Source: a virus | IMG/VR virus record: IMGVR_UViG_3300032334_001128 | Span: 32,001-96,000 of that record | Length of the DNA stretch: 64,000 nt | Strand: one strand, 5' to 3' | Shown: in pieces, positions 2,974 through 24,200 of the stretch | Numbering within the stretch: position 1 is the first letter of the stretch | Layout of the letters: every line of letters starts with the position of its first letter | The notes under the pieces: generated by a model | What the model was told of the DNA's origin: nothing | Databases searched by the model: none | Seen by the model: the letters and a program-made list of their open reading frames with translations, nothing else | Program-made: the position numbers and the translations under genes

Positions 2974-3341
2974 TGCAGATATTAGCCGACGTTTTTCCAG
3001 CACACTTTTCCGCTGCTTCAGCAGGCGTTCTTACGGACGTCTTTCAACTCAACCCGATCTCTCAAAGTTCAGGAACGTTCTACGTCGCCACGACAAGAGT
3101 TATCGTCTCGGAGACTCACATCACAGTAGCTTCAGACTCCCCTGAGGGACCCCAGATAGTCTTTCACGAGCCGTATCTCTCTTTCTTTAAGGCAGAGTCT
3201 CAGACAGGCGTATATCGCGTTTTAACGACGTCTGGGAAGATGCTTGCATTTCAAAAAGACACATCCTGCGGTTGTGGCTCACGTCTACGTGCGTGGAATC
3301 CATATCGCACCCTACAATCGATCATGGACCCAACGGAATGA
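2973..3341 (+). CDS. Hypothetical protein with a C-terminal CGCGS motif
   Basis: TAATG coupling to the upstream gene and ATGA overlap with the downstream gene. Confidence 0.7.
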   Translation: MQILADVFPAHFSAASAGVLTDVFQLNPISQSSGTFYVATTRVIVSETHITVASDSPEGPQIVFHEPYLSFFKAESQTGVYRVLTTSGKMLAFQKDTSCGCGSRLRAWNPYRTLQSIMDPTE

Positions 3342-5435: not shown

Positions 5436-6551
5436 ATGACTCACTCAAAAACTACTCTAAAAGATCACTTAGCAGTGTCTCTAGCTAACGCTGTGGTTAT
5501 GTATCACACTAGCCACGGTTACCACTGGAACGTCAAGGGACTTGACTTCAGAGAGTTCCACGAATTCTTTGGCGAAATATATGAAGACGTCTTTGGTTCT
5601 ATAGACGAGTACGCCGAGAACATTCGTAAGATCGGATTTGACGCTCCTTTCACAATGCAGGAGTTCTTGGAGCTAGCTACCTGCGTTCCAGAGAAGGTCA
5701 CCGTTAGCGATCCGACTCGCTTGACCGCTTCTCTGCTAGACGTCAACCTAAAGCTTATTAGCAGCCTAAAGGCAACCTTTGACTGTGCTAACTCTCTAAA
5801 CGAGCAGGGCGTTGCTAACTTCCTAGCTGAGCGCATTGATGCACACCAGAAGTGGGATTGGCAGCTTGCTGCAACCCTTGGTAACCAGACTTACTCAACG
5901 TCATTCATTGTTGTAGAAGCTGATATGCAGCCACTACCTCAGACTCAGGAAGGCTGGGATGACGAACTTGCATTCCTAGATGGCTACGACAACGAAGGTA
6001 CTGCATTCTTTGCATCTGGCCGATCACGTGAACTAGTTCTTCCACAGAACGTTGAAGCAGAGCTAAAGTCTTTGGTTGACGCTCACAACGCTTCAGCAGG
6101 AGAAGGTCTGAAGACCACTTTTGCTAAGTGTAAGACCGTCTACCGCCGTGGAGCTCGTAAGTATGCTGGCGAACTAGCTGAAGGTACTACACGCCACCGC
6201 TTTGCAGTTGCTCGTGTTGAACAGTTCCTATCTCAGATTGGCAGCGAAAAGCTACTAGCTACATTTAGCACTGACGATGCAGATCTTCTACCAAACTCAC
6301 ACCCTAAGGCTCTAAGCATTGATCCTCTAGTAGCTTCTGCTGCTGTTAAGAAGGGTCTAACTGTGACTGTTAAGAAGCCTGGAGAATACAAGCGTAACGA
6401 GGACGCAGTCCTAGATATCGCTGAGTTCTCTGGTAAAGGCTACGACGCAGTGAGCCAGATCAAGGATGCTTGGATCTATGGACAGTCTAAAGGCAAGTCA
6501 GGCTACAATACAGCTCTGGCATTTGCACTAGGCTATTTCGTACACGGATAA
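5436..6551 (+). CDS. dps: Dps/ferritin-like domain fused to a C-terminal phage domain
   Basis: The first ~150 aa carry the Dps signature HGYHWNVKG..F..FHEFF.EIY.....SIDEYAENIR and the ferroxidase ligands (H,H,D,E), ending HQKWDWQL. They are followed by ~220 aa ending in a DLLPxxHP domain. Confidence 0.85.
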   Translation: MTHSKTTLKDHLAVSLANAVVMYHTSHGYHWNVKGLDFREFHEFFGEIYEDVFGSIDEYAENIRKIGFDAPFTMQEFLELATCVPEKVTVSDPTRLTASLLDVNLKLISSLKATFDCANSLNEQGVANFLAERIDAHQKWDWQLAATLGNQTYSTSFIVVEADMQPLPQTQEGWDDELAFLDGYDNEGTAFFASGRSRELVLPQNVEAELKSLVDAHNASAGEGLKTTFAKCKTVYRRGARKYAGELAEGTTRHRFAVARVEQFLSQIGSEKLLATFSTDDADLLPNSHPKALSIDPLVASAAVKKGLTVTVKKPGEYKRNEDAVLDIAEFSGKGYDAVSQIKDAWIYGQSKGKSGYNTALAFALGYFVHG

Positions 6552-6656: not shown

Positions 6657-9600
6657 GTGAGTCAAAATCTTAGTGCCCTTGTTGCCGCGTTAGAAACTAT
6701 CAACCAGAAAGATCTGGAGCTCAGCGTTGTTGAGACCGAACAGATATTCAAGAAGGGCGTTGTAACTCACGTTCTCCAGCAGAATGCTCTAGTTGCATCA
6801 ATCCGACAGGTGGCAATTAAAGACGTTCTAAAGTTCACCGACCGCTACATCGCTAGCAAGCTAGATAACGAAGACCCTCGTGATGTTTTCTTCAACGCTG
6901 CACGCGAGGTCACAAGTTTTGTTGAGTACGCTGTCAACGGTCCAGCTCTAGAAAGAGTGATGGCAGTTGAGCACAGGGACCTACTCCCAGCGGCTCACCC
7001 GTTCTCAACAAAAACCATTAGCCCAATTACCGCATCAGCACTTCGCGTACGCAATGCTGCCTGGGTAGCCTGGGACCCACGTATTACTGATGATGCAGCA
7101 CGTAAGGCTGTATTTGACGCATACGTACAGCAACCAAACACAACCAAGGGTTTGTATGCAGTTGCACGCCTTGAATCACTAACTGCTTCTGTTGTTCCAG
7201 CAGACATCAAGCTTGGTGCAGTTACAGCTGCATTTGGCGTTGGTAACCCATTTGCTGGTAACAACTCTTCAGCTGCTCGTTCTGCTCGTGCTAAGTTGCA
7301 GCGTCGTGACCGTAAGGGTCGATTTGCCGAGATGGGTGGAGGATCTCGTATCCTTGCAATGATCGGCAACATGATTAAGTCATTCACCGGTAAATTTGCT
7401 GGTATCCCTCAAGACAGCAACAACATTGAAGTTGAAATTGCTGGCAACTCAGATCTTCCTGGCGGTATTTACTCTGTACCAGCATCAAAGGTTGAAGGTC
7501 TTAAGGCTATTCTTCGTGGCAACATGGTATCTCCTGCAGTACCAGCCAACTCACGTAACTCACGTGCAGCTATCGACCTACAAGATCTACTTGCAAGCCG
7601 TAAGAGTGCTCCTACTGGTTGGACAGATAACGGTGATGGTAAATTCACATCTGCAGACGGTTATTCAGTTTCACAAATTGATATCCCTCAGGATGCAACT
7701 GGAATGAATGATAAAAATGGTAACTTTTTACCATTTGAACTTCAAGGCAAATTTATCGGTGCTGGTCCAAACGGATCATACGACCGATCTAAGCCTGTGT
7801 TCGAACTTAAAGATGCTAACGGCAACGTAGTTGGTCGCGCTCAGGAATGGGCAAACCTTCAGAAGCTTGCAGCAGACTCAGACGAGTCTAAGGGTGCAGC
7901 TCCTAAGACAAAGGCACGTCTAAGAACCCCACAGCCTGCTGGCTTCCGTCAAGAACCTGGCGACAACACAGAGCCTATTGACGTAGTTGGCGATTCTGAA
8001 GTAGAGCCGCTACCGGCACCTCCACGTAAAGAAGATGATAATTTTGAAGCTAACTACATAAACTATTTAGCCACTAAGGATTACAAAGCTAAGGACGTTA
8101 CAGATACCGATGGCAAGTACTTCCTATCTGAGCAAGAGCTAGCCGATGGCGGTAAACTTTGGCAAGTAGGCGACGATATGGACGACAACGGTCCTCAGTA
8201 TGTAGCCCAAAAAGCAGACGGTACTTTTGAAGTTAATGGTAAGACTTTCTACCCAAAGAACTACGGCGGGGATGTTATTTCTGCTGCAGATGATGCCTTT
8301 AGTACTGCTGATAAGAATAGATCTGCTGGCAAACGGGGCTTTGCACAGGAGGCTGGTAGCGAAGAAAAAGTTAACAGCGAAACACTGGACGGCTGGGCAA
8401 AAAAGTACGGTGCAGTAGAAACTACTACTCCAGATGACACTGCTAAAAACATGAGAAGATGGGCATTAGATGGCCATGATATTGTTATGGAGAACGCTAA
8501 TACTGATTCTATTAAGCCTTACAATTTTAAAATAAAGATTACTGAGGGCCCAGACGCTGGTAAGTTCTACTGGGGATCAAGCGTTGCAGATATCCCATCT
8601 AACTATCAGTACGGTCTATCTAGGGAAGAGGATTTAGAACAACTCTTTTCATTCCCTAAAAATATAAAACGTAAAAAAGATGGCTTAGAGCCACTAAAAA
8701 CAGATAAAAATCAGCAACGCGATAGCAAGATTGAAAGAATTAAAAACAATCGTGCTCAAAGAGCTAAAGTAACTAATGCTATAGCTACTGCAGACCCAAA
8801 AAAGATTCAAGAAGCCTTAGATGATGCAGCAATTCCAGAAAAATACCAGGATGTTCTAAAAGCTCAGCTCAAAAAAGCTCAGGATTTTGAAAATGGATTG
8901 AGCGAAGATCCGCACTGGACTAAAGACGAAATTGCTGCTATCGAACAGATGGCAAAAGATTACGGCTATGAAGGCGATATAGTTCCTAATGAAGAAGGCG
9001 TGTACTCATTTACGCTAGGAAGCGAGGATGACTATAGTTGGGCCGAGCTAACTATATTCCCTGGCAATAGAGCTGACTTAACTCAGTATACTACTGGTGC
9101 ATATAGTCCTGGTGGATGGGATGAGCCTCCTAGCCAGGATGTAGATTCAGAAACTAGATCAATCCCTGTAGGGTCTTCTATGGACGATCTCGAGAATATA
9201 TTTGCTGGTGGAGATAATAGCTCCGATGCGCCAGAACCACCAGAGCGTGACGAAGACGAGGGCTTCTACCAAAAGCCGGGCGAAGAACCAGAAATTAAAA
9301 CCGTTGATGACTACGTAAACTCAAAGTACGGTAGAGGTTTCAAGGAAACAACTACTGAAGCTGATAAAGCAGCTGGAAGACGCGTTTGGTTCTATGAAGA
9401 CACAGACACTGGCGGTGGCGGTGAGGTCACTCAGAATGCTGACGGCACTGTTGATATTTCAGGTACCACTTTCTCTCAGGGTATGTTTGGCGAGAGACAA
9501 TCAGAATTTGATGACAGCTTTGACCCTAACTTCTATGGCGAGGGTGAAGACGGTAGAGTCGGTGCAATTGACGACGCCTTTGGTACTATTAAGTACAAAA

Positions 9601-12600
9601 CAGGTGATCCTGGCGTACCTGACTCTGACGGCTTCGAGCAGGCTCCTGGCCTCCCTGGATTCAGACAGAAGTCCGGTAAGGGTAAATTTGAACTACCTGA
9701 AGACTTTGACAGTGTTAAGAACTGGAAAGATCTTGGCAATGGTAAGTACGAGTACACCTCTAAAGACGGACGTCTAAAGGTAAGGTACAACGAAGAATTT
9801 GACGCCGAGCCTGACGGTGAAGGCGGTATGCGTGGCTACGAAAACTCATACGCTGAGATTGAACTAGACGGTGAAGTAATTGAAGACAGTCTAGATGCTA
9901 ACGGTGCTTCTTTCCTTTTTGGTGAGGGTGAGAGAGAATTCGAACCAGCTGAGCTAGCTGACAGAGTAGTTAAGTCTCTTAAGGATGCCCAGAGCAAGGG
10001 CTTCAAGCAAGAAGCTGGGAAAGACTCAGAGGCCCAGGCCGAGTCATACTTAAATGAACTAGAGCAAGATGCTTCAGAGATTCTCGATAGAAACCCGATG
10101 GGCACCACTGAATGGACATCTAAAGATGGAAGAGTTAAGGCAGTTCACGGTGATGACGGCAGTGCTGGTGAATACGTCGAGGTATTCCTAGATGGTAAAT
10201 CCATTGGAGGTGTTGGTAAGTATTCCCCTGTGGAAGATCCAAAAACTGGAAATTATAGTGAACCATGGGATAGCCCTGATAAAGAGCCAGGTTGGGTAGC
10301 TGATGGGATCTACGAGCTTCTAAAGGAGAACCTAGCTACTGAAGGCTTCAAGCAAGAAGCTGGTAAAGAAAAATTTGAACTTTCAAAAGAGTTTTACAAC
10401 GACAAGAACTGGTCTAAGGAACCATTTAAAAATCCTGAATGGACTTCTGCAGACGGTAAGGTAAAAGTCAAGTACGTCTCTGATGGCGACGTAAATGATG
10501 AAGGACGTCCAGTTGACACTTCTTACCTAGAAGTATCCGTTGATGGCGAAGTCATTGGAGATATTTCCGCACCTAATGCCCTTCAGTACAACGCAGGTGA
10601 TCCTAACGACCCTGAATACATGAGGACCGGAATTCCAAGTTCTAAACTAGAACTAGACGAGTACGGCGACGATGTCCAGGCTATGGTTGACAATCACCTA
10701 AAGTCTAAGGGTGGCTTCAAGCAGTCTGCTGGTGAAGCAGGTGGAGTTCGCAAGTCTCACATTTCTGACCTAGACAACTGGTCTAGTGACCCATCAGATG
10801 GTGGAGAAGGTACATACACCTCTCCAGATGGACGTCTAACTCTCGAGGCTATGGCTGACGCTGACACCGACGGTGAAGGCGGAATGAAGGATCTATCTCG
10901 CATTGCTGTTTCTTATGACGGTGAAGAGATTGGAACTCTACCTAAACTTGGCGTAATGTACAACGAGGCAGATCTTGCTGACGACGTCGACAATCTAGTT
11001 AGCAAGTACCTAGAAAAGCAAACTGGTGGTTTCAACCAGCAGCCTGGTTCTGGCAGACGAAAAGTTGGAAACTTTAGAGTAATTCCTAGAGAAGAATTCA
11101 CCGACATTGTTGGTGCAGCTGATACTTCTGATGGCGGAATTGTACGTCTTGAGAAAACTAAGAACGGTACAATTACCCCTACCGCTTATAACAGATTTGG
11201 TCAGGTGATGGCTCAGAGCGAGCCTACAACTGATCTAGACGCTGCTCTAAAAGAGGGTGAGCGACTGCTATCTGGTCTTGAAGGCAAGGCCCAGGACAGC
11301 CCTGAAGTTTCTGGATTCTCTCAGAAGCCAGGCGAAGAGCCACCAGCCTGGACTAAGGATCCAGCTACTCCTTTGCAGTACAACAAGCTTCAGGGTATTC
11401 TTGACAACCAGGCTGACAGGCTTCCAACTGATGTCCGTGACATGGTTGAAGAAGCCGTTGCTAACAAGGCTCTAACCAAGGGCGAGATGGGCAAGCTCCT
11501 TGCTGAGGTTGGTAAGAGTGCTGATCTTTCAATTAGCTACACTCCTAAGGTTGATAAGGCTCATGCTTCTGATAGAGCTAACTGGAAGTATGATAAAAAA
11601 TCTAAGAGTTACTCATACACCTCTGCTGACGGAAGACTGTCTATTAATGCTGTGTCTCCAGAAGACGGTGCAACTACAGTAACTTATGACGGTAAGCCAG
11701 TTCAGATATCTAGACCTTACGGCAGTGAGATCTGGCAATCAGTCGATAACGGTGGAGTTCCTATTGGAGATTCTGTCGATACTGCTATCAAAGATCGACT
11801 AGATTTTGAAAATAAAACAGGCATCTATTCAGATAAGTCAGGCTTCGCTCAAGCTCCTGGATCTACTTCAAAAGCAATCCGTACTCCTCAGCCACAGGTT
11901 GACGAGGGTCGTGCGGCATCAGCTAAATTTGCCAAGGACGGTTTCCTAGAACAAACAACCAACTACGGCAGTGGTGACTCTGACTTGTCATGGGAAATTG
12001 ATGTTGATGACATGGAAAGTGCTGCAATAGTTGTTAAGTACTCTCCTAACCGTGGAACATGGTACGCATACGCTCAGTACAGAGATAAGAGAGGTAATCT
12101 CAGTACTGCTGAAAATGGCGACTTAGGAGACTTTAAGACTGCAGAAGAAGCTATGGCTGCAGCTAGTGCTTTTAATAACGATGAAGATCGTATGGATGAG
12201 TACAATGAAATCATTCGCGATGCTAGAAAAGCTCGTATGCAGGCAGTTGCAACTAAGTTTGAAGAGGCAGTTGCAAACAAAGACTACGATGCTCTAAAAG
12301 AGCTTTTAAATGATGAAGATGTTCTAACTTCAGAAGACTCCGATTTCTTAGAGAATGACATTCTAGAAGAGATGAACTCTATATCTCTTGAAGAAGAGCG
12401 CCAAAGCGATGTTGAGGATGCTCTCGCTTCGAATGATAAAGATAGATTAGAAGAGCTACTGGGTGATGACGACTACGAGGAGTATCACTCTAGGCTGGAA
12501 GACGCTATCAATGACTTCAAACATGGAGAAGAAGATCCAGACGGCTTCGAGCAAGCTCCAGGTAAAAAACTAACTCCTCGAAACAACCAAACTCTCAAAC

Positions 12601-15600
12601 CAAACAGTATTGGTGGCTACGATACAGGAACCGACGGGGATGGCTATATAGAAGTAAATCCTAACAAGGACGGAACATGGGAAGTAAGTCACGCATATAA
12701 CTACCTGATCGATGAAAATGGTCCTGAAGGTGTTATGGATGAGGGCTCACAGACTTTCAAGACTAAAGAAGAAGCTATGGCGTATGCTAACGATAAGCTT
12801 GAATATTACAATAGTCAGGAAGTCTATGATGATGCCTCTGATCACGCTATGGAAGCTGCATACCGTGGTGGAATGTACGATGAGGGCTTTGAGCAACGTC
12901 CTGGAAGACAAGTCAACATTGGTGATTTTGAGGTCTTTAAGGGTAACTATTCTCTAAGTGATAAATTTGAGGACTTCAATGTCAGAATTGAAAAGACTCC
13001 AGAAGGTAAATGGAAAGTAACTCCATCAGTCTTTGGATTCCCTGGAAACGATGTAAACCGCCGCGAGGACTGGTTTGATCAAACTCCTCAAACATTTGAC
13101 AACTTAGAAGATGCTAAGAAGTCAGCTGTTAAAGAAGCAAACTATCTAAGTAATGACACCAATAGATCCGGTGCCCTCGATGAGAGGGGACCAGGTTATG
13201 GTTTCGCTCAGAAGCCTGGAAAGAAAGTAAGTCCAGAAGTTTCTGCTAAGAACAAGGAACTAGCTAAGAGACTTATGGAAAAGGGTGCTTTTGATCCTGA
13301 TGGTGGTTTAGATGAAGATGACCCAGACTATGAAGCTCTTCAAGATATTAAGGATCGTAACGAGGCTTACCTAGATAACCTTGCTGCTACAGATCCAGCA
13401 GAGTATTTCTATACTATTGCTAAAGCTGGAGAGTTTATGGGCGCTGAACCATCTGACTTCAGACGTATGATTGAAAAGCCATACAACTACCATGCTGAAG
13501 TTCTTGAATCAGAGATGAACAGCTGGGTCGGAGACAACAACAGCGGCTACTGGTTAGATGAAATCGGTCACGGCTCTGAGGGCGAAGGCTTCGCTCAAAA
13601 AGCTGGAACTAAGAAAGTAAATCCAAAGGCAGCAATTCAAAAGATTATTGATGCAGCTCCTAAAGATCAGGGCTTTGCTCAGCGTGCTGGTAAAGAAGAC
13701 GGTTTAAAGAGCAACGGTACAATTGCTGGAGATATCTATGATCCAGAGACCTACGGCATGATGGACTGGGCATCTAAATGGACAGATTTCTCGGTTTCTG
13801 AAGGAGAAAATAGGCTTGGCGAGTGGTGGAAGTGGCAAGAAGAGTTTGGTCAGTGGGCAGTTAGCGAAGATCCAAAAGAAGCTGCGGGTCAGGGTCTAGT
13901 TGACGTCTACACTCTTCGTGATATTTTAGATGGAAACGTTGGCACGTTTAATCCTCTAAGCAAGAGAGATTCCGGTTGGCGTGATCGAGGAGATGGTAGT
14001 CACGAGTTTAAATCTGAGACTATAAATATATTCCCTACTAAAAATGATGACGGAACATTTGATTACACCATTACTAATGCGGCTACCGATGAGTTGATTG
14101 ACACAATCGAAAACGTAGGTGCGGCTGATAGTGTTGAAAATCTTATTTCTGGTGAATTTAGATCAGATTTGGAAGATATTGGCTATGAAGTCAGTGGTAG
14201 ATCTAGTAATGCTGTTAATCTATTCTCAGATCCATATGACAGAAGTAGAGGGTTTGCTCAAAAGTCTGGATCTGACTCCGGGCTATTAGAAGAAAATCCT
14301 GCAGCTATTAAACTCAGCGGTAAATTTAGTGATACCGGATCTGGTGGAATAAACTATCAGGATTCTGAAGGTAGATCCAAGGGTAGCGTACAAATGTTCT
14401 TTACTAAAGATAAGAATGGTAAAGAAAGCTACGGTTGGATGGTCGAGTACCTACCATCTAATGGAGAAGGTATTGTACGTAAGAGTTTTATGCAAAAATA
14501 TGACGGTGCCTACGAAGGAAAACCGTGGATTGCAGCTGAAAAACATCTAAGAAATCTAATTGCTAAAGACAATGCTAGCCAGAACAAACAAAAAACTGGT
14601 GGATTCTCTGCTAAGCAGATGGAACCTGCAACTCCTGCCCAGTATGCTCTTCTACAAGAGTACGCTGACGAGAGAGTACCAGCTGATGATCTAACTGCAC
14701 AGGCAATTCAAGACGCACTTGCTAACAGGAACCTAACTAAGGCACAGATGAGTGCTCTTATTGGTCCTATGAACGATGCTGAATTCAAGCCGGGCGTTGA
14801 CCCTAACAAGCCAAGCGACCGTGCTCTTAAGTCATTAAACAGCAAGCTTGTCACTAAAGATCTAACTCCAGAAGAAGTCAAGGACATCCTAGACAACCTA
14901 CCGAACATGAACCGTGCAGAAGTTGATGCTCTAAACGACAGGCTTCGCAGGAAGAAGGATCGTCCAGAGACCATTGGTTTCGCTCAAGAGCCAGGTGGTT
15001 CTGATGACGAGAACATGGAGCAGCTAATGGGCGACGACCTAGGCAACGACAGAAACGTTGAAACCCAGGGCGAAATGTCTGACTACTACAACTCTCTCAA
15101 AGGTGACCGTATTGCAGAACTTCAAAAGAAACTCGATGCTGCAAATGAAGAAATCAATATCTTCGGTCTAGATGACTTGCAAGAAATGCTAGACGAGGCT
15201 GACCCAGATAGCGAAGCTAACCTAAAGAGATATGGTAAAACTTGGCCTGCAGAGCAGTCTTACATTGCAGCTCAGGATCTTAGAGACGCTGCAGAGCAAA
15301 TTAGAAACAGCAATAACCCTAACGTTGACAAGAGTCTAGCTGATGATCTAGACAATGCCGCCAATCAGGTTATGAAGCGTATGGAAGATAGGATCAATCC
15401 ACTACTGTTCGCTTCAGTTGAAGATCCATATGGTACCAATTTTGATCTAGGTGATGTAGACACAGATCTAGACCAGATGCGTGAACTCTACTTTGAGACT
15501 GACACAGATGAGATCAAGAAATATCTAGATCAAACTGGAGTCTACGGTGACGTTAGATCTGGTGGAGCAGAAGCAGTAGTTTCTGATAAACCAGAAGAAG

Positions 15601-18600
15601 ATGGCGAAAACAAAGGCAAATACAGAGCTTCTGTAAGTTACGGTGGCGGAACTGCTGCTGATGATCAGGTAGAGTACTTTGATGACCCAGAAGATGCTAA
15701 AGACTGGGCAGCTAATGAAGTTTCTAACTTAAGTAGCTATCACCAAGTAGGTCTTACTCACCCAGACAAATCTTTCTCAGATCTTGATGCAGAAAGAGAT
15801 GCTGCAATTGCAAATGGCACTGAGCAGGAGTTCCTAAGTAGACTATCTGACGTAGCAAAAATAATGAGAGATCAGAGAGGCGATGAAAAGCTATCTCGTG
15901 AACTTGATGACTACGTTGAACGTGCCCAGGCAGCTCTTGACAAGAAGAAGGGCAACGCAGGAGGTCAAGGCTTCGCTCAAAGACCAGGATCTGATGAGAA
16001 CGAGCAAGATATAATCGACGACATCAAGTCTCGTGGACAAGATATCATTGATGGTCTTAGAGACAATGGCAAAATCGATGTTGAAACTGATGAAGAGTTC
16101 GAAGCTAGAATTGCTGACTATCAAAGGAACTTGGATGGTCTACTATTCCAACTAAACTTTGGCAATAGCGATACTTTAGAGCGTTTTGGGATGGATTTCG
16201 ATTCCACAGCATGGACAAGTTCTGGTAATGACGAACTTCTTGCTCAGCTAGAAGATCTAGTTCCAGAAGCTAGAAGACGTCGTAGTAGTGCTATTTATGG
16301 ATCCCGTGGCTTTGCTCAGGAACCAGGCTCCGGAACCCCTGTCAGAAATGACAAACTAAACCCAACCAGTGATGGTGGATTTGGTACTAATCCTTACTCT
16401 GATAGTCAAATTGAAGTCAATCCTACCAAAGATGGTAAGTGGGAAGTAAATCATGCTTATAACTACATGATTGACGAGAATGGTCCTACAGGTACCATTG
16501 ACGAGGGTTCTAAACTCTTTGATTCCAAAGAAGAGGCTCTTGCATTTGCTAATGAAAAACTTGACTACTACAACAGTTCTGATGTAGACAGAGATGCAGA
16601 AGATCACAATGCTGATCGTTATACTGGGTTTGATCAAAAGCCAGGCAACGCAGTTGTCTCTCCTAAGATGGGTGAACCAGCTTCAGATGCTCAGTACGAC
16701 TACCTCAAAGAACTTGGCGATACTCAGGATGGAATCAGTCCGGATCTAGCTACTGCAATCCAGGATGCTCTATCAAGTAAAAACTTGACAAAGGCTCAGG
16801 TGGGTGCATTGCTAGGACAACTTAGAGCTCTAAAGCCTAAGGCTGGTATTGATACAAGTAAGCCGACTCCTCGTCAAATTCAGAGAGTCAAAGATCTTGC
16901 GAACTCACTTGGCCTAAGCCCTGCTGAAAAGCGTAAGCTTGGTCTTAGCAAGGTGAGCAGCATGTCTTCTGATGAAGTTCAGAAGCTCATTGACAACCTA
17001 AAGCGTAGAGGCGGGGGAGACGAGGGGTCAGGTGGTGTCCGCCCAAAAGGTAGACCCGGCGATAAGCCGGGTGGTGGCGGATCAGTAGGTCAAGTACCCG
17101 GAAAATTAATTTCTTATACTCCTAGAAGTAAATTCTTAGAAAAAGATAGATCTGACGCTAAAGAAATTTATGACAGAGTAAATAAGAATCTTGACAAATA
17201 TGCTAGTCAGGATTCTGAATTTGCAAAAAAATTAGAAGAGTCTAAGAAGAAGTACCCTGAAGGCATCTACAGCATGATTGACATTGCTGCAGATCCTAAC
17301 TCTACTCAGCAGCAAATTGACGATGTTATAAAAGACGTCAATGATCTTAATAAAGCTCTGCAGAGTAGTAAAGCGGATGTATTTGCTGGAGACACTAATG
17401 TATTAGATGGTCTTGCTAAATATAAATTTGCCGAGCTAACCCCAGAAGTTAATAAACAAAAACTATCTGGAGGAAGCAAGAAGCACTCTGAAGGTGACAC
17501 TGTAGATTCTAGATTTAGTGCTATGTATAACCCTAACCTAGTTGAATACAAGAGCTCAGAAAATGGTAGGGGCTCCACTAATACAGCAATTGGTTATGTA
17601 ACTACCGATGCTTTAGAAGGCATGGCTGGAAATGAAATTCGTAATGCAAGTGTAGTTAACGATATTGCAAAAGATCTTAAAAATGGAGTTGGATTTAAAG
17701 AACCGATAATCATGATTTACGATCCAAAAACCGGTAAAGCATTTATTACTGAAGGTAACCATAGACTTGCTGCAGCAAAAAAGGCTGGAGTTAAATACGT
17801 TCCAGTAAGAATTGTAAATCTAGATGTAGCTCCAGGTGACCAGATTAAGATGGAGCGAGTTGGTAAGCCTCTAGGACGTAGAGCTGCCCCTATTGGCGGA
17901 GGTGAGTGGTCTTCAACAATTCAGCCTAGTCAAATATTTGATGACTCTCAGCTTCTCCAAGAAGATGCCGGAGGTTTTGCTCAAGCAGCCGGATCACCTA
18001 GAGCCAAGAGATTCAACGAAATGGCGGCTGACCGTAAGTTTGTAGACGCTACAACTGAAAAAGATGCTAAGAAAGATATTAGCCGTTGGAGTAGAGAAGA
18101 AAACGGTCTAAAAACTGAAATTACTGAACGTAATGGAAGATTCACTGCCAAGTTCAGCGATAAGCCTAAAGAAGAAGTAGACCTTGGTATCAATGAATCT
18201 GCAGCGTTTAAAGAGGCAGAACGCCAGATTATGCTCAGAACCGCTGAGTTTGACACTGTTGACCTAGATGGCTTTGCTCAAAAAGAAGGCGACAAGGGTC
18301 CTAAGCGTCAACGCGTTCTAGAAGCCATCGCTTCAGTAAGCAACGCCCTCGGTCTATTCGACGAGTGGAAGGGTAAGACTACCAAGGTTCGTGAAGATGT
18401 AAACAACGTTGGCGAATTTGTCAACAACATGCGTTACGTCAAGGCGGATCTTGAAAAAGCAATCAATAACCTAAAGAACTCTAAGGGTGTTGAAGAGAAG
18501 ATGGCTGCCATCTCTGAGCTGACTGCTGCAATCAAGAAAGCAAAACTTGCTGCAAGAATTGCTAAGGATCGTTGGAAGAGAAATCACCCTGAAGACCTGA

Positions 18601-21044
18601 AGCCTAAGGCTCCAAAGACTCCTAAAGCTATTGAAGCTCCTACAGTTGAAAAAGTTAGCAAGAAGTTTGAAGACGATTTAACTGCAGCTGAAGAAGCAAT
18701 CAGTCCTACCCCTGGACGACTTCCTAATCCTGAGCCTTACAACATTCCACGTGGTGGAGTGTACATGTATGACGAAAACGGTAACCGCCTACGTCAAGAT
18801 GGCACACCTTTTAGACCGATTGGTCCTTCAGATCTGGATGGCTTCGCTCAGTCCCTACCGACCGAGACAGTATCTCCTAAAGATTTCAAGGCTAGACAAG
18901 CTAAAGCTATAGCAGATAACAAGGCTGCTGCGGCTTCTATGATGGATATTTTCCGTAAGCGTATAAAGAACCCAGCTTGGCACAAATGGCAAGCTCCTTA
19001 CTCAGATTATCCTGCCGACGATCCAATGACTGCTCCGGTTAATCCGAGCAACATGCCATTTAACCCTTCATCTAATCATCAATATAGTGCGATAAACCAC
19101 CACGCTCTAGCTACTGCAGCTGCTGAACGTGGCTATACAGACCCTCGCTGGATGACTTCAGCACAGGCTAAAAAACTTGGTGCTACTGTTCGTGATGGCG
19201 AGCAGGGTGTGAAGATCATGACATTTATGACTATTGAAGATGAAGAATCTGGAGAGCGCTCAATAGTCCAAGTACCTAGATTTGTTTTTAACGCTCAGCA
19301 AATGGATGGTCTAGAGCCTTATAGTCCTAGCCAACAACCAAAGATGGATGCTGCACAGGCTATTGATTTCGTTCTTGGTAGATTTAGTGAAGCCGAGAAA
19401 AAGCGTGGCAAGAGTGGAAATATAAAGATCTGGGAGGATCTGTACGGTAGTGACACCCCTATGTGGAGTCCTGCAGGAGCTCGTAGGCCTGAAAATATTA
19501 GAATGCCTGATCGTAGCAAATACGACAGCCCTGAAGATTACCTATATAGTTTATTCCACGAACTAGCCCATGCAACTGGAACTCAGGATAGACAGGGTAG
19601 AGAAGCCCACCTAGCTCAAGCGCGTGGGGACATGACTATGGGTCAGCTAGCGGTTGAAGAAGCCACTGCCGAGATTGCTTCTCAGCTATTACTACAGCGT
19701 CTAGGTCTAAACTATAATCCAGACAGAACAGCCGAATACCTAAGATCTCACGATCTTAATGATGCTCAGCTAAATGAAGCAATGGCAAAAGCAGAGCTAG
19801 CAGTTGATTATGTACTAGGTAACGATGTTCTCCCTCCATGGCATAACAGCTCTAGCGACATGATGGAAGCTGCAGAAGTCCCTGGATATACTCCACCTGC
19901 TTCACGTAGCTGGAACCCTAATACTAACCTAGGTCCTCAGGACGCTCCTTCAGCATTCCCTGCTGGAACTCCAGGATCTGATGAAAACCCAGAAGTAACT
20001 GGTTTTGCTCAGAAGCCTGGAAAGTTTGACAGAACTGGTAAAAAGTCTGTAACTGATAGCAAGACTGCAACAGAAAAAGTTATGGCCGGTCTTCTTGAGA
20101 AGATCAAGCAGGGAGAGACTCCTTGGCGTAAGCCTTACAAAGAGGGCGAAAAGTACGCAGGTATAGCTCTACCTAGAAACCCATCGTCTAAGCACATCTA
20201 CTCGGGTGTAAACGCTATGGCTCTAAGATTTGCTCAAGAAGAGAATGGCTATAGCGATCCTCGATGGATGACCTATAACCAAGCTTCGGCAATGGGTGGT
20301 CAGGTACGTAAGGGTGAGAAGGGTACATTCATTCTTGTTCCTATGCGTATCACTCAGCAGGATGAGAAAGACCCAAACAAGAAGCGTTCATTCACCATGT
20401 TCAAAGCTACTGCAGTATTTAACGCTGAGCAGATTGATGGTCTGAATCTACCTGAACTATCTACAGAGAGCCTCCCTAAGATGACTCCTCTAGATGCACA
20501 GGAATTCATTGTTGAGCGTTACAAGAAGGCAATGGCAGCTCGTACCGGCAAGGCTCCAAACATCAAACATACTTATGTTGGAAGTGGTGGAGCACACCAG
20601 GCTCCAAACTGGGGAACCTTATCGGATGAAGTTACTCTACCTAACCTAGAGCAATTTAATTCTCCTGAAGATCTGTTTGACACAATCGCTCACGAACTTG
20701 TACACAGTACAGGCCACCCAGATCGTCTAGACAGATCGGATCTAACCAAGGACTATGCCAATGATTTAGAGTCTAGAGCTAGAGAAGAACTTATTGCTGA
20801 AATTGGAGGTGCTCTACTAGCTAATATGTTTGGTGTAGATGCAACATTTGATAACAGTGCAGCATATGTTCAAAGCTGGCTAAAGCACCTACAATCCAAC
20901 CCAGACGAGATTATCAATGCAACTAGCCAGGCCCAAAAAGCTGTAGACTATATTCTTGGTACAGATCTTGGAGACTGGAGCCCGATTGACGGATATAGCA
21001 TTGGAAATGCTGTCCAAAAACCTACAGAAGAAGAGGAGTCATAA
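6657..21044 (+). CDS. Giant (4795 aa) polyvalent head-module protein: GFxQxxG-delimited modules, a ParB/Srx-like domain, two ArdC-like ssDNA-binding + zincin units
   Basis: Single uninterrupted ORF with an AGGAAGG RBS. Contains EGNHRLAAA (ParB-like, ~17586-17816), NPSS.H.YS.+N / DPRWMT..QA...G..VR.GE.G / VFNA.Q.DGL (ArdC N-domain) twice, and HELAH (19557) and HELVH (20691). Confidence 0.85.
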   Translation: MSQNLSALVAALETINQKDLELSVVETEQIFKKGVVTHVLQQNALVASIRQVAIKDVLKFTDRYIASKLDNEDPRDVFFNAAREVTSFVEYAVNGPALERVMAVEHRDLLPAAHPFSTKTISPITASALRVRNAAWVAWDPRITDDAARKAVFDAYVQQPNTTKGLYAVARLESLTASVVPADIKLGAVTAAFGVGNPFAGNNSSAARSARAKLQRRDRKGRFAEMGGGSRILAMIGNMIKSFTGKFAGIPQDSNNIEVEIAGNSDLPGGIYSVPASKVEGLKAILRGNMVSPAVPANSRNSRAAIDLQDLLASRKSAPTGWTDNGDGKFTSADGYSVSQIDIPQDATGMNDKNGNFLPFELQGKFIGAGPNGSYDRSKPVFELKDANGNVVGRAQEWANLQKLAADSDESKGAAPKTKARLRTPQPAGFRQEPGDNTEPIDVVGDSEVEPLPAPPRKEDDNFEANYINYLATKDYKAKDVTDTDGKYFLSEQELADGGKLWQVGDDMDDNGPQYVAQKADGTFEVNGKTFYPKNYGGDVISAADDAFSTADKNRSAGKRGFAQEAGSEEKVNSETLDGWAKKYGAVETTTPDDTAKNMRRWALDGHDIVMENANTDSIKPYNFKIKITEGPDAGKFYWGSSVADIPSNYQYGLSREEDLEQLFSFPKNIKRKKDGLEPLKTDKNQQRDSKIERIKNNRAQRAKVTNAIATADPKKIQEALDDAAIPEKYQDVLKAQLKKAQDFENGLSEDPHWTKDEIAAIEQMAKDYGYEGDIVPNEEGVYSFTLGSEDDYSWAELTIFPGNRADLTQYTTGAYSPGGWDEPPSQDVDSETRSIPVGSSMDDLENIFAGGDNSSDAPEPPERDEDEGFYQKPGEEPEIKTVDDYVNSKYGRGFKETTTEADKAAGRRVWFYEDTDTGGGGEVTQNADGTVDISGTTFSQGMFGERQSEFDDSFDPNFYGEGEDGRVGAIDDAFGTIKYKTGDPGVPDSDGFEQAPGLPGFRQKSGKGKFELPEDFDSVKNWKDLGNGKYEYTSKDGRLKVRYNEEFDAEPDGEGGMRGYENSYAEIELDGEVIEDSLDANGASFLFGEGEREFEPAELADRVVKSLKDAQSKGFKQEAGKDSEAQAESYLNELEQDASEILDRNPMGTTEWTSKDGRVKAVHGDDGSAGEYVEVFLDGKSIGGVGKYSPVEDPKTGNYSEPWDSPDKEPGWVADGIYELLKENLATEGFKQEAGKEKFELSKEFYNDKNWSKEPFKNPEWTSADGKVKVKYVSDGDVNDEGRPVDTSYLEVSVDGEVIGDISAPNALQYNAGDPNDPEYMRTGIPSSKLELDEYGDDVQAMVDNHLKSKGGFKQSAGEAGGVRKSHISDLDNWSSDPSDGGEGTYTSPDGRLTLEAMADADTDGEGGMKDLSRIAVSYDGEEIGTLPKLGVMYNEADLADDVDNLVSKYLEKQTGGFNQQPGSGRRKVGNFRVIPREEFTDIVGAADTSDGGIVRLEKTKNGTITPTAYNRFGQVMAQSEPTTDLDAALKEGERLLSGLEGKAQDSPEVSGFSQKPGEEPPAWTKDPATPLQYNKLQGILDNQADRLPTDVRDMVEEAVANKALTKGEMGKLLAEVGKSADLSISYTPKVDKAHASDRANWKYDKKSKSYSYTSADGRLSINAVSPEDGATTVTYDGKPVQISRPYGSEIWQSVDNGGVPIGDSVDTAIKDRLDFENKTGIYSDKSGFAQAPGSTSKAIRTPQPQVDEGRAASAKFAKDGFLEQTTNYGSGDSDLSWEIDVDDMESAAIVVKYSPNRGTWYAYAQYRDKRGNLSTAENGDLGDFKTAEEAMAAASAFNNDEDRMDEYNEIIRDARKARMQAVATKFEEAVANKDYDALKELLNDEDVLTSEDSDFLENDILEEMNSISLEEERQSDVEDALASNDKDRLEELLGDDDYEEYHSRLEDAINDFKHGEEDPDGFEQAPGKKLTPRNNQTLKPNSIGGYDTGTDGDGYIEVNPNKDGTWEVSHAYNYLIDENGPEGVMDEGSQTFKTKEEAMAYANDKLEYYNSQEVYDDASDHAMEAAYRGGMYDEGFEQRPGRQVNIGDFEVFKGNYSLSDKFEDFNVRIEKTPEGKWKVTPSVFGFPGNDVNRREDWFDQTPQTFDNLEDAKKSAVKEANYLSNDTNRSGALDERGPGYGFAQKPGKKVSPEVSAKNKELAKRLMEKGAFDPDGGLDEDDPDYEALQDIKDRNEAYLDNLAATDPAEYFYTIAKAGEFMGAEPSDFRRMIEKPYNYHAEVLESEMNSWVGDNNSGYWLDEIGHGSEGEGFAQKAGTKKVNPKAAIQKIIDAAPKDQGFAQRAGKEDGLKSNGTIAGDIYDPETYGMMDWASKWTDFSVSEGENRLGEWWKWQEEFGQWAVSEDPKEAAGQGLVDVYTLRDILDGNVGTFNPLSKRDSGWRDRGDGSHEFKSETINIFPTKNDDGTFDYTITNAATDELIDTIENVGAADSVENLISGEFRSDLEDIGYEVSGRSSNAVNLFSDPYDRSRGFAQKSGSDSGLLEENPAAIKLSGKFSDTGSGGINYQDSEGRSKGSVQMFFTKDKNGKESYGWMVEYLPSNGEGIVRKSFMQKYDGAYEGKPWIAAEKHLRNLIAKDNASQNKQKTGGFSAKQMEPATPAQYALLQEYADERVPADDLTAQAIQDALANRNLTKAQMSALIGPMNDAEFKPGVDPNKPSDRALKSLNSKLVTKDLTPEEVKDILDNLPNMNRAEVDALNDRLRRKKDRPETIGFAQEPGGSDDENMEQLMGDDLGNDRNVETQGEMSDYYNSLKGDRIAELQKKLDAANEEINIFGLDDLQEMLDEADPDSEANLKRYGKTWPAEQSYIAAQDLRDAAEQIRNSNNPNVDKSLADDLDNAANQVMKRMEDRINPLLFASVEDPYGTNFDLGDVDTDLDQMRELYFETDTDEIKKYLDQTGVYGDVRSGGAEAVVSDKPEEDGENKGKYRASVSYGGGTAADDQVEYFDDPEDAKDWAANEVSNLSSYHQVGLTHPDKSFSDLDAERDAAIANGTEQEFLSRLSDVAKIMRDQRGDEKLSRELDDYVERAQAALDKKKGNAGGQGFAQRPGSDENEQDIIDDIKSRGQDIIDGLRDNGKIDVETDEEFEARIADYQRNLDGLLFQLNFGNSDTLERFGMDFDSTAWTSSGNDELLAQLEDLVPEARRRRSSAIYGSRGFAQEPGSGTPVRNDKLNPTSDGGFGTNPYSDSQIEVNPTKDGKWEVNHAYNYMIDENGPTGTIDEGSKLFDSKEEALAFANEKLDYYNSSDVDRDAEDHNADRYTGFDQKPGNAVVSPKMGEPASDAQYDYLKELGDTQDGISPDLATAIQDALSSKNLTKAQVGALLGQLRALKPKAGIDTSKPTPRQIQRVKDLANSLGLSPAEKRKLGLSKVSSMSSDEVQKLIDNLKRRGGGDEGSGGVRPKGRPGDKPGGGGSVGQVPGKLISYTPRSKFLEKDRSDAKEIYDRVNKNLDKYASQDSEFAKKLEESKKKYPEGIYSMIDIAADPNSTQQQIDDVIKDVNDLNKALQSSKADVFAGDTNVLDGLAKYKFAELTPEVNKQKLSGGSKKHSEGDTVDSRFSAMYNPNLVEYKSSENGRGSTNTAIGYVTTDALEGMAGNEIRNASVVNDIAKDLKNGVGFKEPIIMIYDPKTGKAFITEGNHRLAAAKKAGVKYVPVRIVNLDVAPGDQIKMERVGKPLGRRAAPIGGGEWSSTIQPSQIFDDSQLLQEDAGGFAQAAGSPRAKRFNEMAADRKFVDATTEKDAKKDISRWSREENGLKTEITERNGRFTAKFSDKPKEEVDLGINESAAFKEAERQIMLRTAEFDTVDLDGFAQKEGDKGPKRQRVLEAIASVSNALGLFDEWKGKTTKVREDVNNVGEFVNNMRYVKADLEKAINNLKNSKGVEEKMAAISELTAAIKKAKLAARIAKDRWKRNHPEDLKPKAPKTPKAIEAPTVEKVSKKFEDDLTAAEEAISPTPGRLPNPEPYNIPRGGVYMYDENGNRLRQDGTPFRPIGPSDLDGFAQSLPTETVSPKDFKARQAKAIADNKAAAASMMDIFRKRIKNPAWHKWQAPYSDYPADDPMTAPVNPSNMPFNPSSNHQYSAINHHALATAAAERGYTDPRWMTSAQAKKLGATVRDGEQGVKIMTFMTIEDEESGERSIVQVPRFVFNAQQMDGLEPYSPSQQPKMDAAQAIDFVLGRFSEAEKKRGKSGNIKIWEDLYGSDTPMWSPAGARRPENIRMPDRSKYDSPEDYLYSLFHELAHATGTQDRQGREAHLAQARGDMTMGQLAVEEATAEIASQLLLQRLGLNYNPDRTAEYLRSHDLNDAQLNEAMAKAELAVDYVLGNDVLPPWHNSSSDMMEAAEVPGYTPPASRSWNPNTNLGPQDAPSAFPAGTPGSDENPEVTGFAQKPGKFDRTGKKSVTDSKTATEKVMAGLLEKIKQGETPWRKPYKEGEKYAGIALPRNPSSKHIYSGVNAMALRFAQEENGYSDPRWMTYNQASAMGGQVRKGEKGTFILVPMRITQQDEKDPNKKRSFTMFKATAVFNAEQIDGLNLPELSTESLPKMTPLDAQEFIVERYKKAMAARTGKAPNIKHTYVGSGGAHQAPNWGTLSDEVTLPNLEQFNSPEDLFDTIAHELVHSTGHPDRLDRSDLTKDYANDLESRAREELIAEIGGALLANMFGVDATFDNSAAYVQSWLKHLQSNPDEIINATSQAQKAVDYILGTDLGDWSPIDGYSIGNAVQKPTEEEES
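7941..20021 (+). repeat. 25 dispersed in-frame copies of the peptide G-F-x-Q-x-x-G (24 complete, one GFAQSLP)
   Basis: First-G positions: 7941, 8337, 9261, 9630, 9657, 9999, 10344, 10713, 11028, 11313, 11841, 12543, 12885, 13200, 13587, 13671, 14250, 14976, 15969, 16308, 16626, 17973, 18270, 18840, 20001. A degenerate GFSAK lies at 14601. Confidence 0.95.
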
Positions 21045-21275: not shown

Positions 21276-24200
21276 ATGATCACATTTATCGGCCAATCTG
21301 GGTCGTTGCTCTTGTTTACAAGTGAGCACCATGGTGTAGTTGTCGACACCGATTTTAATATGGTTGTTGAGTCAGGCGTTCCTGAGACTCTATTTTCTAG
21401 CCGTAGCTGGGAAAAATCTGATACAGAGCCTGGTCAAGATCTAACTGCTTTAGCCTCCATCTCTTTACAGACTATGGATGCAAAAACTATTATTGCGTCT
21501 GCTGGACGTATGTATACCATTCCAAAATCTGCTCAAGCAGAAGCCAAGAAAGCTCTTGAATGGCACAAGGAGCACCACCGTGGCGGCACTCCTGTCGGCA
21601 TGAATACAGCAAGAATTCTTGCTAAGGGTGGGCAAATAAGCCTACAAAAAGTACGCCACATCGCAAAGTACTTCCCTCGTCACGAAGTTGACAAAAAGGG
21701 TAAAGGCTGGAAGCCAGGCCAAGATAACTTCCCAAGCAACGGCAGAATTGCGTGGGCCTTGTGGGGTGGTGATTCAGCTTGGCGTTGGGCTGTTGATATT
21801 GTAAAACACGCAGATCCAAAACCAATTAAAGCTGGTGGCGGTTATCTGGCTCAGCAACAGCCTCAAGACCCTTTCCACAATGCGTTCACTCTTGAAGAAA
21901 ACTATGGTCCAGAGTTTATGGCTCGTGTATGCCTTGATGGATCTGGACTAGATCGCCTATACAAAGTTGACATCGATGGTCAAGTTTACGTGTGGGATAA
22001 CGACTGCTGGGACGACATGGGAAATGTCGACAGCGATGTCTGGGACTATGACCAGGGGTTAGATTATGAAGATGATGGCATAGAAAAAAGTCACATTCTT
22101 ATTGATGCATCGTCTGCTGTAATGATTGCAGCTCGTTTGGCAAACAATCCTTTCGGCAAAGTTTCTGTTTTTGATCTTGATGAGGACGAAGCTAGACTAG
22201 CTGCCCGATCAATTCCTGAAGAAGACTGGGAGATGATTGACCTAGGTATGGTAGCTGCTGGTGAAGGTGGTATTGGCCCAGCGTCATATACTCCAAAGGA
22301 ACGTGCAGCAAACGTAGCTAAGCAACCTCGCTCTGCGGGTGGAAGATTTGGATCAAAGGGTAGTAAGGCTCAAGTTGGCCAGAAGACTACACCTGGAGCT
22401 AGCAACCCTGGTTCAGCTCCAAGTGCTGGAAAACCTGGGGGCATAAGCCTGGAAGATCAGAGAAAGAATGCTAACTCCGGTCTTCCTCCTCAAGAAATAC
22501 TTGAAGGTCCTCTAGATACTTCTGGAATCCTTGGAGAACCTCGTACTCCAATCGATAGACCTAACGCTCGAATATCTGGCACTCTTCCTGCAATGACAAA
22601 GGAAGATCTCCACCAGGTTCTTTATGACTTCCCTGCTTGGGTTCAGAGCCAGCGTGCTTCTTATAGTCCTGGTGATTACCACACTCCTATGACTAGTGCT
22701 GGTGATGAGAAAAAAGAATCAGAAGACCCAGAATCTTACGACCACCCTTTACTTAAAAAGTGGCGTGCCACTAAACTCCGCGAAGAGATCAAACCTTCTA
22801 CAGACACTAGCTGGGCAGCCCCGGTTGTTGCTGCTGCAGGAGTGGCTGAGGCTCAGAAGCCAGCCGTAGATCCTGAGAAGGAAGTTCAAAAAGATGAAGC
22901 CAAACCAGAAGGTGCTCCAAAGAGCAATCCAAAACCTAGCGATCCTGGTAAGCCGGTACAGCTTACTCCTGAAACTTCTGACGTACAGCCTCTGTATTTT
23001 GCTATTGTTGCTCCAGATGACCCTCAAGCAGTAACCGATCTAATTAGCATGGTCCCAGCCAGCTCAACGTCAACTGCTCCTATGATCTACAAGCGCTTAG
23101 ATAAGAAGTGGGTTCGTGATGAGAAGACACTTGCTGATCTAAAGTCTGCAACTCCTCCACCTGTTGTCCCTCTTGACTCTGCAACTCTGAACGATGTTCT
23201 AAAGCAGGTTGACGGTCTAGTTGCATCTGCTGGTTACCTACAACACCAGATGATAGTTCTATGGGGACCTAGAGAAGATATTCTTGTTGCTGCTGGTGGC
23301 CTTGATAAAAACAGAGGTAACGCAGAAGAACTTCGCCGTTACTGGACTGTTGGCAAGGGTGCAGCCAAGATTCGTTGGAACACTAAGGGTGACTGGACTC
23401 GTTGTGTTCGTCATTTAGAAAAGTATCTAGGCCCACGTGCTAAGGGATATTGTGCTCTACGCCACAAGGAAGTTACTGGTCTGTGGACTGGTGATAAGCG
23501 CCATCGTGAGCTATATGGACGTAAGGGTGTAAATAGTAACAAGGCATTCTTCAGTGATGAAGTCCTTAAGTCTTCAGAAATGGTCATCGACTCAGTAACC
23601 TTAGTTGCTCGTGCTAATGATGCTAAGCACCGTCTAGGTCTATTGGCAAGTGCACCTATTGCCACATCTACTAATGGAGGAATGTTCCGTATTCCTTTAG
23701 TAATCCCTGAGGGTAAGCAAACCGGAGATGGTCGTACTTTCCGCAAGGGATCAATCACAATGCGTGAACTACCACTGCCATTGCTATGGCAAGTTAGAAC
23801 TTCAGACGGACACAATGGGTCCGTTGTAATCGGTCGAATTGACCGAATGGAGCGTACTGAAGAAGGTATTGGAAATGCTGTTGGCATTTTTGATACTGGA
23901 GAGTATGGGCGTGAAGCCGAACGTTTGGTTCGCAACGGATTTATTCGTGGCGTATCAGCCGATATGGATCAGTTCGAGGCTGAAGAAGAAAAAGAAAAGA
24001 AAACTTCTAAGTCAAAGACTGAGAACGACATCGACATCGATGACGATAAAAAAGTTGGTGGGGACAAACTCACTATAAATAAAGCTCGGGTAATGGCAGT
24101 CACTATGGTGCCAAAGCCCGCGTTCCAAGAATGCAAAATCTTCCTCGTAGAGGAAGGTGAACCCCAGGAGGATAATATGATTCCACAAGATGGAATATAT

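Follow-up and report, generated by a model that had tools for sequence, protein, structure and literature searches.

A regular glutamine-centred junction motif in a giant phage protein: a candidate processing code for putative head cargo

We analyzed a 64,000-nucleotide stretch of viral DNA (hereafter the window), comprising bases 32001-96000 of the single 126,293-bp viral contig of IMG/VR record IMGVR_UViG_3300032334_001128, and focused on a gene that encodes a giant polyvalent protein of 4795 aa, P0001. The protein is punctuated by 25 copies of the peptide motif GFxQxxG, which separate modules that relatives carry in other arrangements, and which sister lineages replace in concert by other peptides centred on the same Gln. 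Our preferred interpretation, to which we assign a probability of roughly 0.55, is that the motifs are protease sites cut after the Gln by the prohead protease of the next gene, and that cleavage would free the cargo from a head-targeting domain at the N terminus of the chain.

6657..21044, + strand: giant polyvalent protein gene, 4795 aa (P0001), an open frame with a GTG start
7941..20021, + strand: 25 GFxQxxG junction motifs, from a motif scan with a shuffle control
First bases of motifs 1-9, + strand: 7941, 8337, 9261, 9630, 9657, 9999, 10344, 10713, 11028
First bases of motifs 10-18, + strand: 11313, 11841, 12543, 12885, 13200, 13587, 13671, 14250, 14976
First bases of motifs 19-25, + strand: 15969, 16308, 16626, 17973, 18270, 18840, 20001
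14598..14618, + strand: degenerate junction GGFSAKQ, residues 2648-2654, kept as GG[FL]SAKQMEP in relatives

A preliminary description of this DNA had counted 25 in-frame GFxQ motifs, 24 of them with a Gly at position +6, and had noted that all of the Gly, Phe and Gln codons are in use; a recount in the open reading frame (ORF) at 6657..21044 and the codon counts agree with it. The sole copy lacking the Gly is GFAQSLP at residue 4062. By chance, GFxQ is expected 0.55 times on average and at most four times (2000 shuffles of the same protein). The first Gly is encoded by GGC in 16 copies, by GGT in 5, and by GGA and GGG in 2 each, Phe by TTC in 16 and TTT in 9, and Gln by CAA in 14 and CAG in 11, indicating that conservation and selection act at the level of the peptide and ruling out DNA-level repeats as the origin of the array. 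The segment sizes also stand as first described, with 13 of the 24 internal segments measuring 95-135 aa and most being acidic (isoelectric point 4.1-5.1). A further copy missing from the earlier count, the degenerate GGFSAKQ at residue 2648, aligns with the canonical motifs that precede other copies of the same helical module. Elsewhere in the window, a six-frame scan found only scattered single GFxQ matches. One of these, GFSQ at residue 428 of the portal protein, was considered as a true site and rejected as a chance match, since it reads GFSR in the closest relative.

Comparison with relatives indicates that the motif marks the borders of exchangeable cassettes. Among the 50 giant proteins that match the N-terminal domain of P0001, the motif is borne only by the closest ones, P0002-P0007, joined afterwards by P0053, with 9-17 copies each, and the clade to which they and P0001 belong (clade A) contains 8 distinct proteins with 9-25 copies each. 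Segments homologous to those between the motifs of P0001 occur elsewhere in the motif-bearing relatives, at other positions, in other orders and in other copy numbers, and the cassette alignments start 0-2 aa past one motif and run exactly up to the next. The expectation that homologues would retain the motif while the modules vary is borne out by this segment comparison, the modules having been shuffled, duplicated or lost. In P0007, for which no relative was found in IMG/VR, the downstream half of the motif is altered at nearly all sites, reading GFxQGxR 13 times; so many sites changing together points to one reader of the motif. A motif-free junction was seen in P0003 (residues ~1335-1578, corresponding to L014:13567-14300), where two adjacent modules of ~115 aa with the signature WTSxDGRxKV are joined by KHLNSSPKRRNLAKDY, indicating that single junction sites can be lost.

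Two sister lineages carry different peptides at the same junctions. Lineage B, represented by the metagenome loci L067, L070, L071 and L074, has 7-9 copies of [DE]-[LM]-x-Q-[DG], typically in the form PDLDQD, where ~0.3 would be expected, and lineage D, represented by the IMG/VR relative L013, has 9 GLxQ sites (8 of them GLDQ) against an expectation of 0.5, distributed over three consecutive ORFs. In homologous modules, these sites occupy the same junctions. Past the LRRKKD[RK]P end of a helical module, for instance, the window reads ETIGFAQEPG and lineage B reads SDLNQGTG or AELNQGTG, and before another copy the window has GFDQKPG, lineage D GLDQNAP and lineage B DLDQDQ. The Gln of the motif is the only invariant column in alignment A2, whose 18 rows are flanked module copies that belong to two families and come from four lineages. 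In a quick tree built from 56 rows of the N-terminal domain, lineages A, B and D form one clade with a Shimodaira-Hasegawa-like approximate likelihood ratio test (SH-aLRT) value of 99, and all 12 of its members are punctuated. None of the 44 rows outside the clade has a comparable motif; they have mostly Pro-rich linkers, such as PTPE, EAPE and PEVP, and motif discovery in 43 more distant family members likewise returned Pro-rich linkers only. The simplest history suggested by these comparisons would be that a hydrophobic-x-Gln junction site arose once and that the adjacent positions then drifted in concert, and concerted replacement between lineages is the signature expected of a site that is read by one co-evolving trans-acting factor. 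In the distant family member P0008 we observed x-[ED]-Q-E-M-A four times (residues 414, 1597, 2137 and 2894), with the first copy immediately behind the N-terminal domain; the peptide may mark a further type of Gln-centred junction, four copies being too few to call.

The structural setting of the junctions was modelled for one pair of modules.

16272..17042, + strand: two test-case modules, residues 3206-3462, modelled with AlphaFold2 on alignment A2

The model consists of one module with a beta-sheet and two helices and one that is a helical bundle, both with a predicted local distance difference test (pLDDT) score above 90, while the motifs at residues 3218-3224 and 3324-3330 (2 of the 25 sites) are coil with pLDDT below 50. 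A structural strand within each domain, named beforehand as the role that would speak against cleavage, is thus not what the model gives, since both motifs are coil. Over all 25 sites, the 12-residue flanks of the motif are more hydrophilic than random positions (Kyte-Doolittle hydropathy -1.18 versus -0.82, p = 4e-4). These results indirectly support a reading of the motif as a short linear signal that sits in disordered linkers where cassettes meet. A Foldseek search with the two-module model gave no PDB match at E <= 0.001.

What the cassettes are attached to, and what some of them contain, can be read from the domains of the chain.

6657..7940, + strand: N-terminal domain, about 428 aa, common to a family of giant phage proteins; a predicted head-targeting/anchor domain
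17583..17825, + strand: ParB-like domain, residues 3643-3723 (phrog_8071, E = 5.4e-5)
18852..20012, + strand: ArdC-N plus zincin metallopeptidase (MPTase) unit 1, residues 4066-4452 (PF08401 and PF18818)
20013..21044, + strand: ArdC-N plus zincin MPTase unit 2, residues 4453-4795 (ArdcN 4471-4588, MPTase 4654-4758)

A search with the first 430 residues of P0001 matched the 50 giant proteins mentioned above, which measure 2646-7986 aa and carry very different cargo, including helicases, exonucleases, ADP-ribosyltransferases, NUDIX and ArdC domains, and a profile of the domain matched 79 metagenome loci. The domain belongs to no Pfam or NCBIfam family, and no MuF/gp7 family matches it in Pfam, PHROGs or NCBIfam. 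In every punctuated lineage the first motif follows directly after it, at residues 429, 455 and 521. Matches of the whole protein comprise ArdcN twice, MPTase-PolyVal twice and Tc-38-like in Pfam, and an anti-restriction protein and a ParB-like domain in PHROGs; the recognisable domains (the ParB-like domain and the two ArdC-N plus MPTase units) are confined to the C-terminal quarter. Both units start directly after a motif, as had been noted, unit 1 after that at residue 4062 and unit 2 after that at residue 4449, and their zincin domains have the HExxH signatures HELAH (residue 4304) and HELVH (residue 4682), with PF18818 matching in two stretches at a score of 137.8 bits (cut-off 27.5). The earlier proposal that the modules are anti-defence effectors is supported only for the two ArdC-N/MPTase units, perhaps also for the ParB-like domain, and otherwise draws on analogy; the two acidic modules that were folded have no match among solved structures. 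We also noticed a recurring peptide of the type (Q)PR/RRD-x-x-G-[RK]-F. It occurs as RRDRKGRFAEMGGG in the giant N-terminal domain (residues ~215-228, window 7300-7340), where it is nearly invariant throughout the giant-protein family, and as QPRSAGGRFGS (residues ~350-360) and QPRDEYGKFRK (residues ~1405-1415) in the protease-scaffold protein of the next gene, and may be a common assembly or targeting element.

In several relatives the chain is split. In the P0002/P0003 sub-lineage and in lineages B and D it stops before the ParB/ArdC part, and past that stop an overlapping frame carries on with more motifs. A slippery heptamer, C CCA AAA or A AAA AAG, adjoins the stop codon in these split relatives, followed after 6-7 nt by a conserved CCCCC-N5-6-GGGGG hairpin.

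L014:19575-19610, L013:13845-13875, L067:15083-15117 and L074:9043-9075: predicted -1 frameshift signals, each a heptamer plus a hairpin

By its sequence features, this arrangement, kept in three lineages, is a -1 frameshift signal of the classical type, and the first junction motif lies 13-20 residues past the predicted shift. In the window, the N-terminal part and the ParB/ArdC part are fused in frame. Because frameshifting would re-join the ArdC part to the N-terminal part, all of the cargo would be made in cis with the N-terminal domain, which supports a role of that domain as a shared address for the entire array. The first two ORFs of lineage D lie in the same frame with a single TGA between them (L013:12100-12130), and GLDQ motifs stand 13 aa before and 26 aa after it; this TGA could be passed by readthrough or followed by re-initiation.

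We propose that the 4795-aa protein is a head-associated cargo polyprotein. Its N-terminal domain of ~428 aa would target the chain to the prohead, and the remainder would form ~25 independently folding cassettes, mostly small acidic modules along with one ParB-like domain and two ArdC-N/zincin units. The linkers between the cassettes, predicted to be exposed and disordered, carry G-F-x-Q-x-(P/A/S)-G, whose functional core would be hydrophobic-x-Gln. This peptide would act as a protease recognition site with Phe at P3 and Gln at P1, cut after the Gln by the assemblin-fold prohead protease of the next gene during head maturation, and the freed modules would become separate proteins able to exit the capsid together with the DNA. 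Summed over the three candidate enzymes considered here, we regard a protease-site reading of the motif as quite probable.

21276..25988, + strand: protease-scaffold fusion protein, 1570 aa (P0051; phrog_18402 head maturation protease, E = 4.4e-57, plus others)
23655..24116, + strand: assemblin-fold prohead serine protease domain, residues ~794-947 of P0051, by structural match
26126..27958, + strand: major capsid protein (NCBIfam MCP_Sipho, E = 6e-98, residues 132-600; phrog_777)

The sequence of P0051 is strongly conserved between lineages A, B and D. It gave no sequence match in Pfam, NCBIfam or PDB. Residues 790-1235 were folded from a shallow alignment of six rows, and the model was compared with 48,161 chains by VIA-align, a structure search independent of Foldseek. 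The best fold match was T4 gp21 (5jbl_A, Z 8.8, root-mean-square deviation 3.6 over 121 aa), followed by the proteases of varicella-zoster virus (Z 7.5), human cytomegalovirus (Z 5.7) and Kaposi's sarcoma-associated herpesvirus (Z 4.8). Language-model neighbours of P0051 in the ESM atlas fall in Peptidase_S78 and S77 clusters, which we take as a lead only. The PHROG match and the modelled fold together indicate that P0051 contains an assemblin-fold prohead protease. His846 and Ser894, invariant in alignment A3, are candidate catalytic residues, judging from their spacing. The peptide D[ML]DQF, which immediately follows the putative catalytic Ser, was considered as a site and set aside; it is kept in all lineages and was taken as part of the protease core.

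Prohead proteases of this kind have short site rules: T4 gp21 cuts after L/I-x-E, and phiKZ gp175 and SPN3US gp245 cut after S/A/G-x-E, including in head proteins that are ejected into the host (PMC9026906, PMC5694885). The (F/L/M)-x-Q core of the junction motif is kept across lineages and falls in predicted coil. In its putative register and with a scissile bond probably after the Gln, it would follow the same P3-x-P1 grammar as the L/I-x-E of T4 gp21 with Gln replacing Glu. We regard the prohead protease as the best candidate. The capsid protein has an N-terminal extension of ~190 aa (window 26126-26700) in which a conserved helical part is followed by a variable acidic stretch rich in E, P and T, and the extension ends as SFQ/APADRQPV in the window, PFE/APADRQPV in two relatives and VE/APADRQPV in Actinomycetia phage DSL-LC01 (slashes mark the putative cut), likely a maturation site with alternating Gln and Glu.

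Several points weigh against cleavage by this enzyme. Packaging, cleavage and the scissile bond, like the enzyme and the fate of the modules, are what we infer from the motif statistics, the cassette-border position of the motif, the coil that surrounds it in one model, its replacement in concert between lineages and the fold of the protease. The protease model has low confidence overall (mean pLDDT 42, with 60-75 over residues ~794-947 and poor values beyond the first ~160 residues, where a second conserved half lies at ~999-1232), and a Z of 8.8 stands just modestly above the background of the VIA-align search. GFxQ occurs in neither P0051 nor the capsid protein in the six-frame scan of the window, so that the usual substrates of a prohead protease have no visible share in the code, and the capsid site SFQ/APADRQ (PFE/APADRQ in relatives) is in a different register from the motif. 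Homologues of P0051 show no lineage-specific version of the motif, and the same family of prohead protease is found in many non-punctuated relatives. All punctuated lineages also have two zincin MPTase domains, and the enzyme is therefore not assignable by presence or absence.

Of the alternatives, one in which the motif is left uncut seems unlikely to us. It would then be a linker or docking peptide that tethers or organises the chain in the head or during ejection, binding for instance to the capsid interior, the portal or the scaffold, or it would be a preferred joint, tolerated by selection, for cassette swapping. Its location in disordered linkers at cassette borders and its absence from the usual protease substrates are consistent with such roles, and concerted change between lineages would suit any single binding partner, not a protease alone. 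However, most non-punctuated relatives use generic Pro-rich linkers, so that a specific peptide is unneeded for mere linking or swapping; the P3-x-P1 form with an invariant Gln resembles the rules of proteases of the same fold; and an unprocessed chain of 4795 aa would have to pass the tail as a single molecule.

Cleavage by a zincin-like MPTase of the chain itself, the C-terminal domain of its ArdC units, acting in cis or in trans, in the head or after injection, we consider rather improbable, and we know of no substrate rule for the MPTase family. The two MPTase domains of P0001 have intact HExxH motifs and the arrays of lineages A, B and D all end in two ArdC-MPTase units, in keeping with the published hypothesis that MPTases autoprocess polyvalent proteins (PMC5512222); in one variant, the cut could fall between the Gly and the Phe of the motif, with the hydrophobic residue at P1'. 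Yet MPTase-bearing N4 virion RNA polymerase, ArdC and TraC1 are delivered uncleaved (PMC5512222), and many ArdC-MPTase relatives (P0032-P0046) lack a punctuation motif. Lineage B has Asp or Glu in place of Gly before the hydrophobic residue and the Gln is invariant, which argues for Gln-centred recognition.

A cut between Gly and Phe has also to be considered for a prepilin-type aspartyl peptidase (Peptidase_A24), of the phage or of the host, which would act at the cytoplasmic face of the membrane on entry of the chain; we hold this to be very improbable.

Genome 13611-14093 (outside the window), + strand: Peptidase_A24 (type IV prepilin/TadV-like), 160 aa, 36.1 bits against a cut-off of 26.5

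The phage enzyme scores above the Pfam cut-off and has both catalytic Asp motifs (TDARVHRLPN and GMGDVKLF), and a homologue with 55% identity is present in the motif-bearing relative G001 and absent from the motif-free phage DSL-LC01. The canonical site of prepilin peptidases lies between Gly and Phe, which the GF of the motif echoes. Their substrates have Gly at -1, usually Phe at +1, and then a hydrophobic transmembrane segment of ~20 residues, whereas the motif continues with the polar x-Q-x-P-G and hydrophilic flanks and no hydrophobic transmembrane stretch follows it. The acidic residue of the lineage B site (D/E-L) again replaces the Gly, and phage G003 has an A24 homologue yet a motif-free ORF of 3613 aa in its head-gene region. 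No pilin-like substrate gene was seen beside the A24 gene. The 114-aa HExxH protein at 49075, which the preliminary description had listed among possible cutters, can be set aside, as its Pfam match is sub-threshold and it has no homologue in the available 92.7 kb of the motif-bearing G001.

The first 100 bases of the contig are repeated at position 125101, indicating a complete, circularly assembled phage genome of ~125 kb. Replication and structural proteins share 50-83% protein identity with those of DSL-LC01, a phage from a Chinese lake, and one counterpart of the matched genes is annotated as WhiB-like in the DSL-LC01 record; because of these identities, including the WhiB-like ORF, the phage is most likely a siphovirus of freshwater actinobacteria. 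The giant gene is located among late/virion genes, after the portal gene and before the protease and capsid genes. The head region runs in the order portal, Dps-like fusion, giant gene, protease-scaffold, capsid, major tail protein and head-tail adaptor, and this synteny is kept in relatives.

3658..5424, + strand: portal protein (phrog_776, E = 4e-103)
5436..6551, + strand: ferritin/Dps-like fusion protein, 371 aa (Pfam Ferritin, residues 11-150, E = 5.6e-17)

The ferritin/Dps-like fusion protein is encoded directly 5' of the giant gene, between it and the portal gene. The C-terminal half of this protein contains DLLPNSHP, comparable to DLLPAAHP in the N-terminal domain of the giant protein, and the two may have a head-targeting element in common. 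The C-terminus of the portal protein (window 5230-5424, + strand) has PPG[LI][ED]Q[ML]L and then a tail rich in Pro and Ala, kept in all lineages; this is a further hydrophobic-x-Gln element.

Polyvalent proteins and motif-specific prohead proteases are each already known. The former were described with 2-15 domains and no cleavage motif was named; they were predicted to accompany the DNA and to undergo proteolytic processing, with a zincin-like MPTase as hub (Iyer, Burroughs, Anand, de Souza and Aravind 2017, PMC5512222). P0001 resembles them in being a giant multi-domain chain encoded in a late/virion cluster, with ArdC-N, zincin MPTase and ParB-like domains (PMC5512222). It differs in its ~25 cassettes, most of them small, acidic and without a known family, and in the one sharply defined peptide between them, which drifts in concert across sister lineages. 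The likeness to the T4 gp21, phiKZ and SPN3US systems lies in a head-module protease of the same fold, a short site with putative P3 and P1 determinants and presumed cargo substrates with a removable targeting part. Unlike those of the T4 gp21 type, the sites have an invariant Gln in place of Glu, a single chain is punctuated 25 times where propeptides are otherwise trimmed from many separate gene products, the motif is not visible in the scaffold, protease and capsid proteins of this phage, and the targeting part is a domain of ~428 aa rather than a tag of 10-20 residues. The preliminary description had known of no account of so regular an internal cleavage code in a phage. Regular short codes do occur in phage heads, as T4 gp21, phiKZ and SPN3US show; the use of such a code to punctuate a polyprotein of ~25 modules is unusual.

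Positive-strand RNA viruses also make polyproteins, which 3C and 3C-like proteases cut between Gln and Gly, Ser or Ala. As in those polyproteins, many units are joined in one translation product, with a short, Gln-dominated site between them; the present case differs in its DNA phage and capsid-cargo context and in that the units are accessory cargo, not replication machinery. No chymotrypsin-fold protease was found among the ~40 ORFs, a subset of those in the 126-kb genome, that were scanned against Pfam or PHROGs. MuF/SPP1 gp7-type head proteins offer another parallel, since the giant gene adjoins the portal region and combines a conserved N-terminal part with variable C-terminal cargo, although here the cargo is an array of many modules, not a single one, and the N-terminal domain has no MuF/gp7 family match. 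In a limited search of the literature, we found neither a description of regular junction motifs that punctuate a giant protein of a phage nor one of their concerted replacement between lineages.

Extending the proposal to the whole clade, we can tentatively picture lake actinophages with a heritable junction code, in which an address domain would load 20 or more swappable effector cassettes into the capsid in a single chain and a Gln-specific assemblin-fold prohead protease would cut at hydrophobic-x-Gln; we rate this picture at somewhat below even odds. The flanks of the Gln would then have drifted in concert at every junction, as GFxQxPG, GFxQGxR, GLDQxA and DLxQD, a view that we hold with the same reserve.

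If the junctions are cut, one gene would deliver ~25 separate proteins into the host along with the DNA. The polyprotein strategy, so far associated with RNA viruses, would then be used in a tailed DNA phage for cargo, and the conversion of polyvalent proteins into working parts would be explained. An explicit site rule would also become available for annotating the injected proteins of uncultured phages, and the module borders point to dozens of small acidic proteins that could be screened for anti-defence activity. The related protease/site pairs (GFxQ, GLDQ, DLxQD) would be possible orthogonal processing tools, and the concerted drift of the site within one clade offers a clean natural experiment on enzyme-substrate co-evolution. 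If the clade-wide picture is correct, these phages would possess naturally occurring protease/site pairs that differ from one another, and their injected counter-defence arsenals would have a modular way to evolve.

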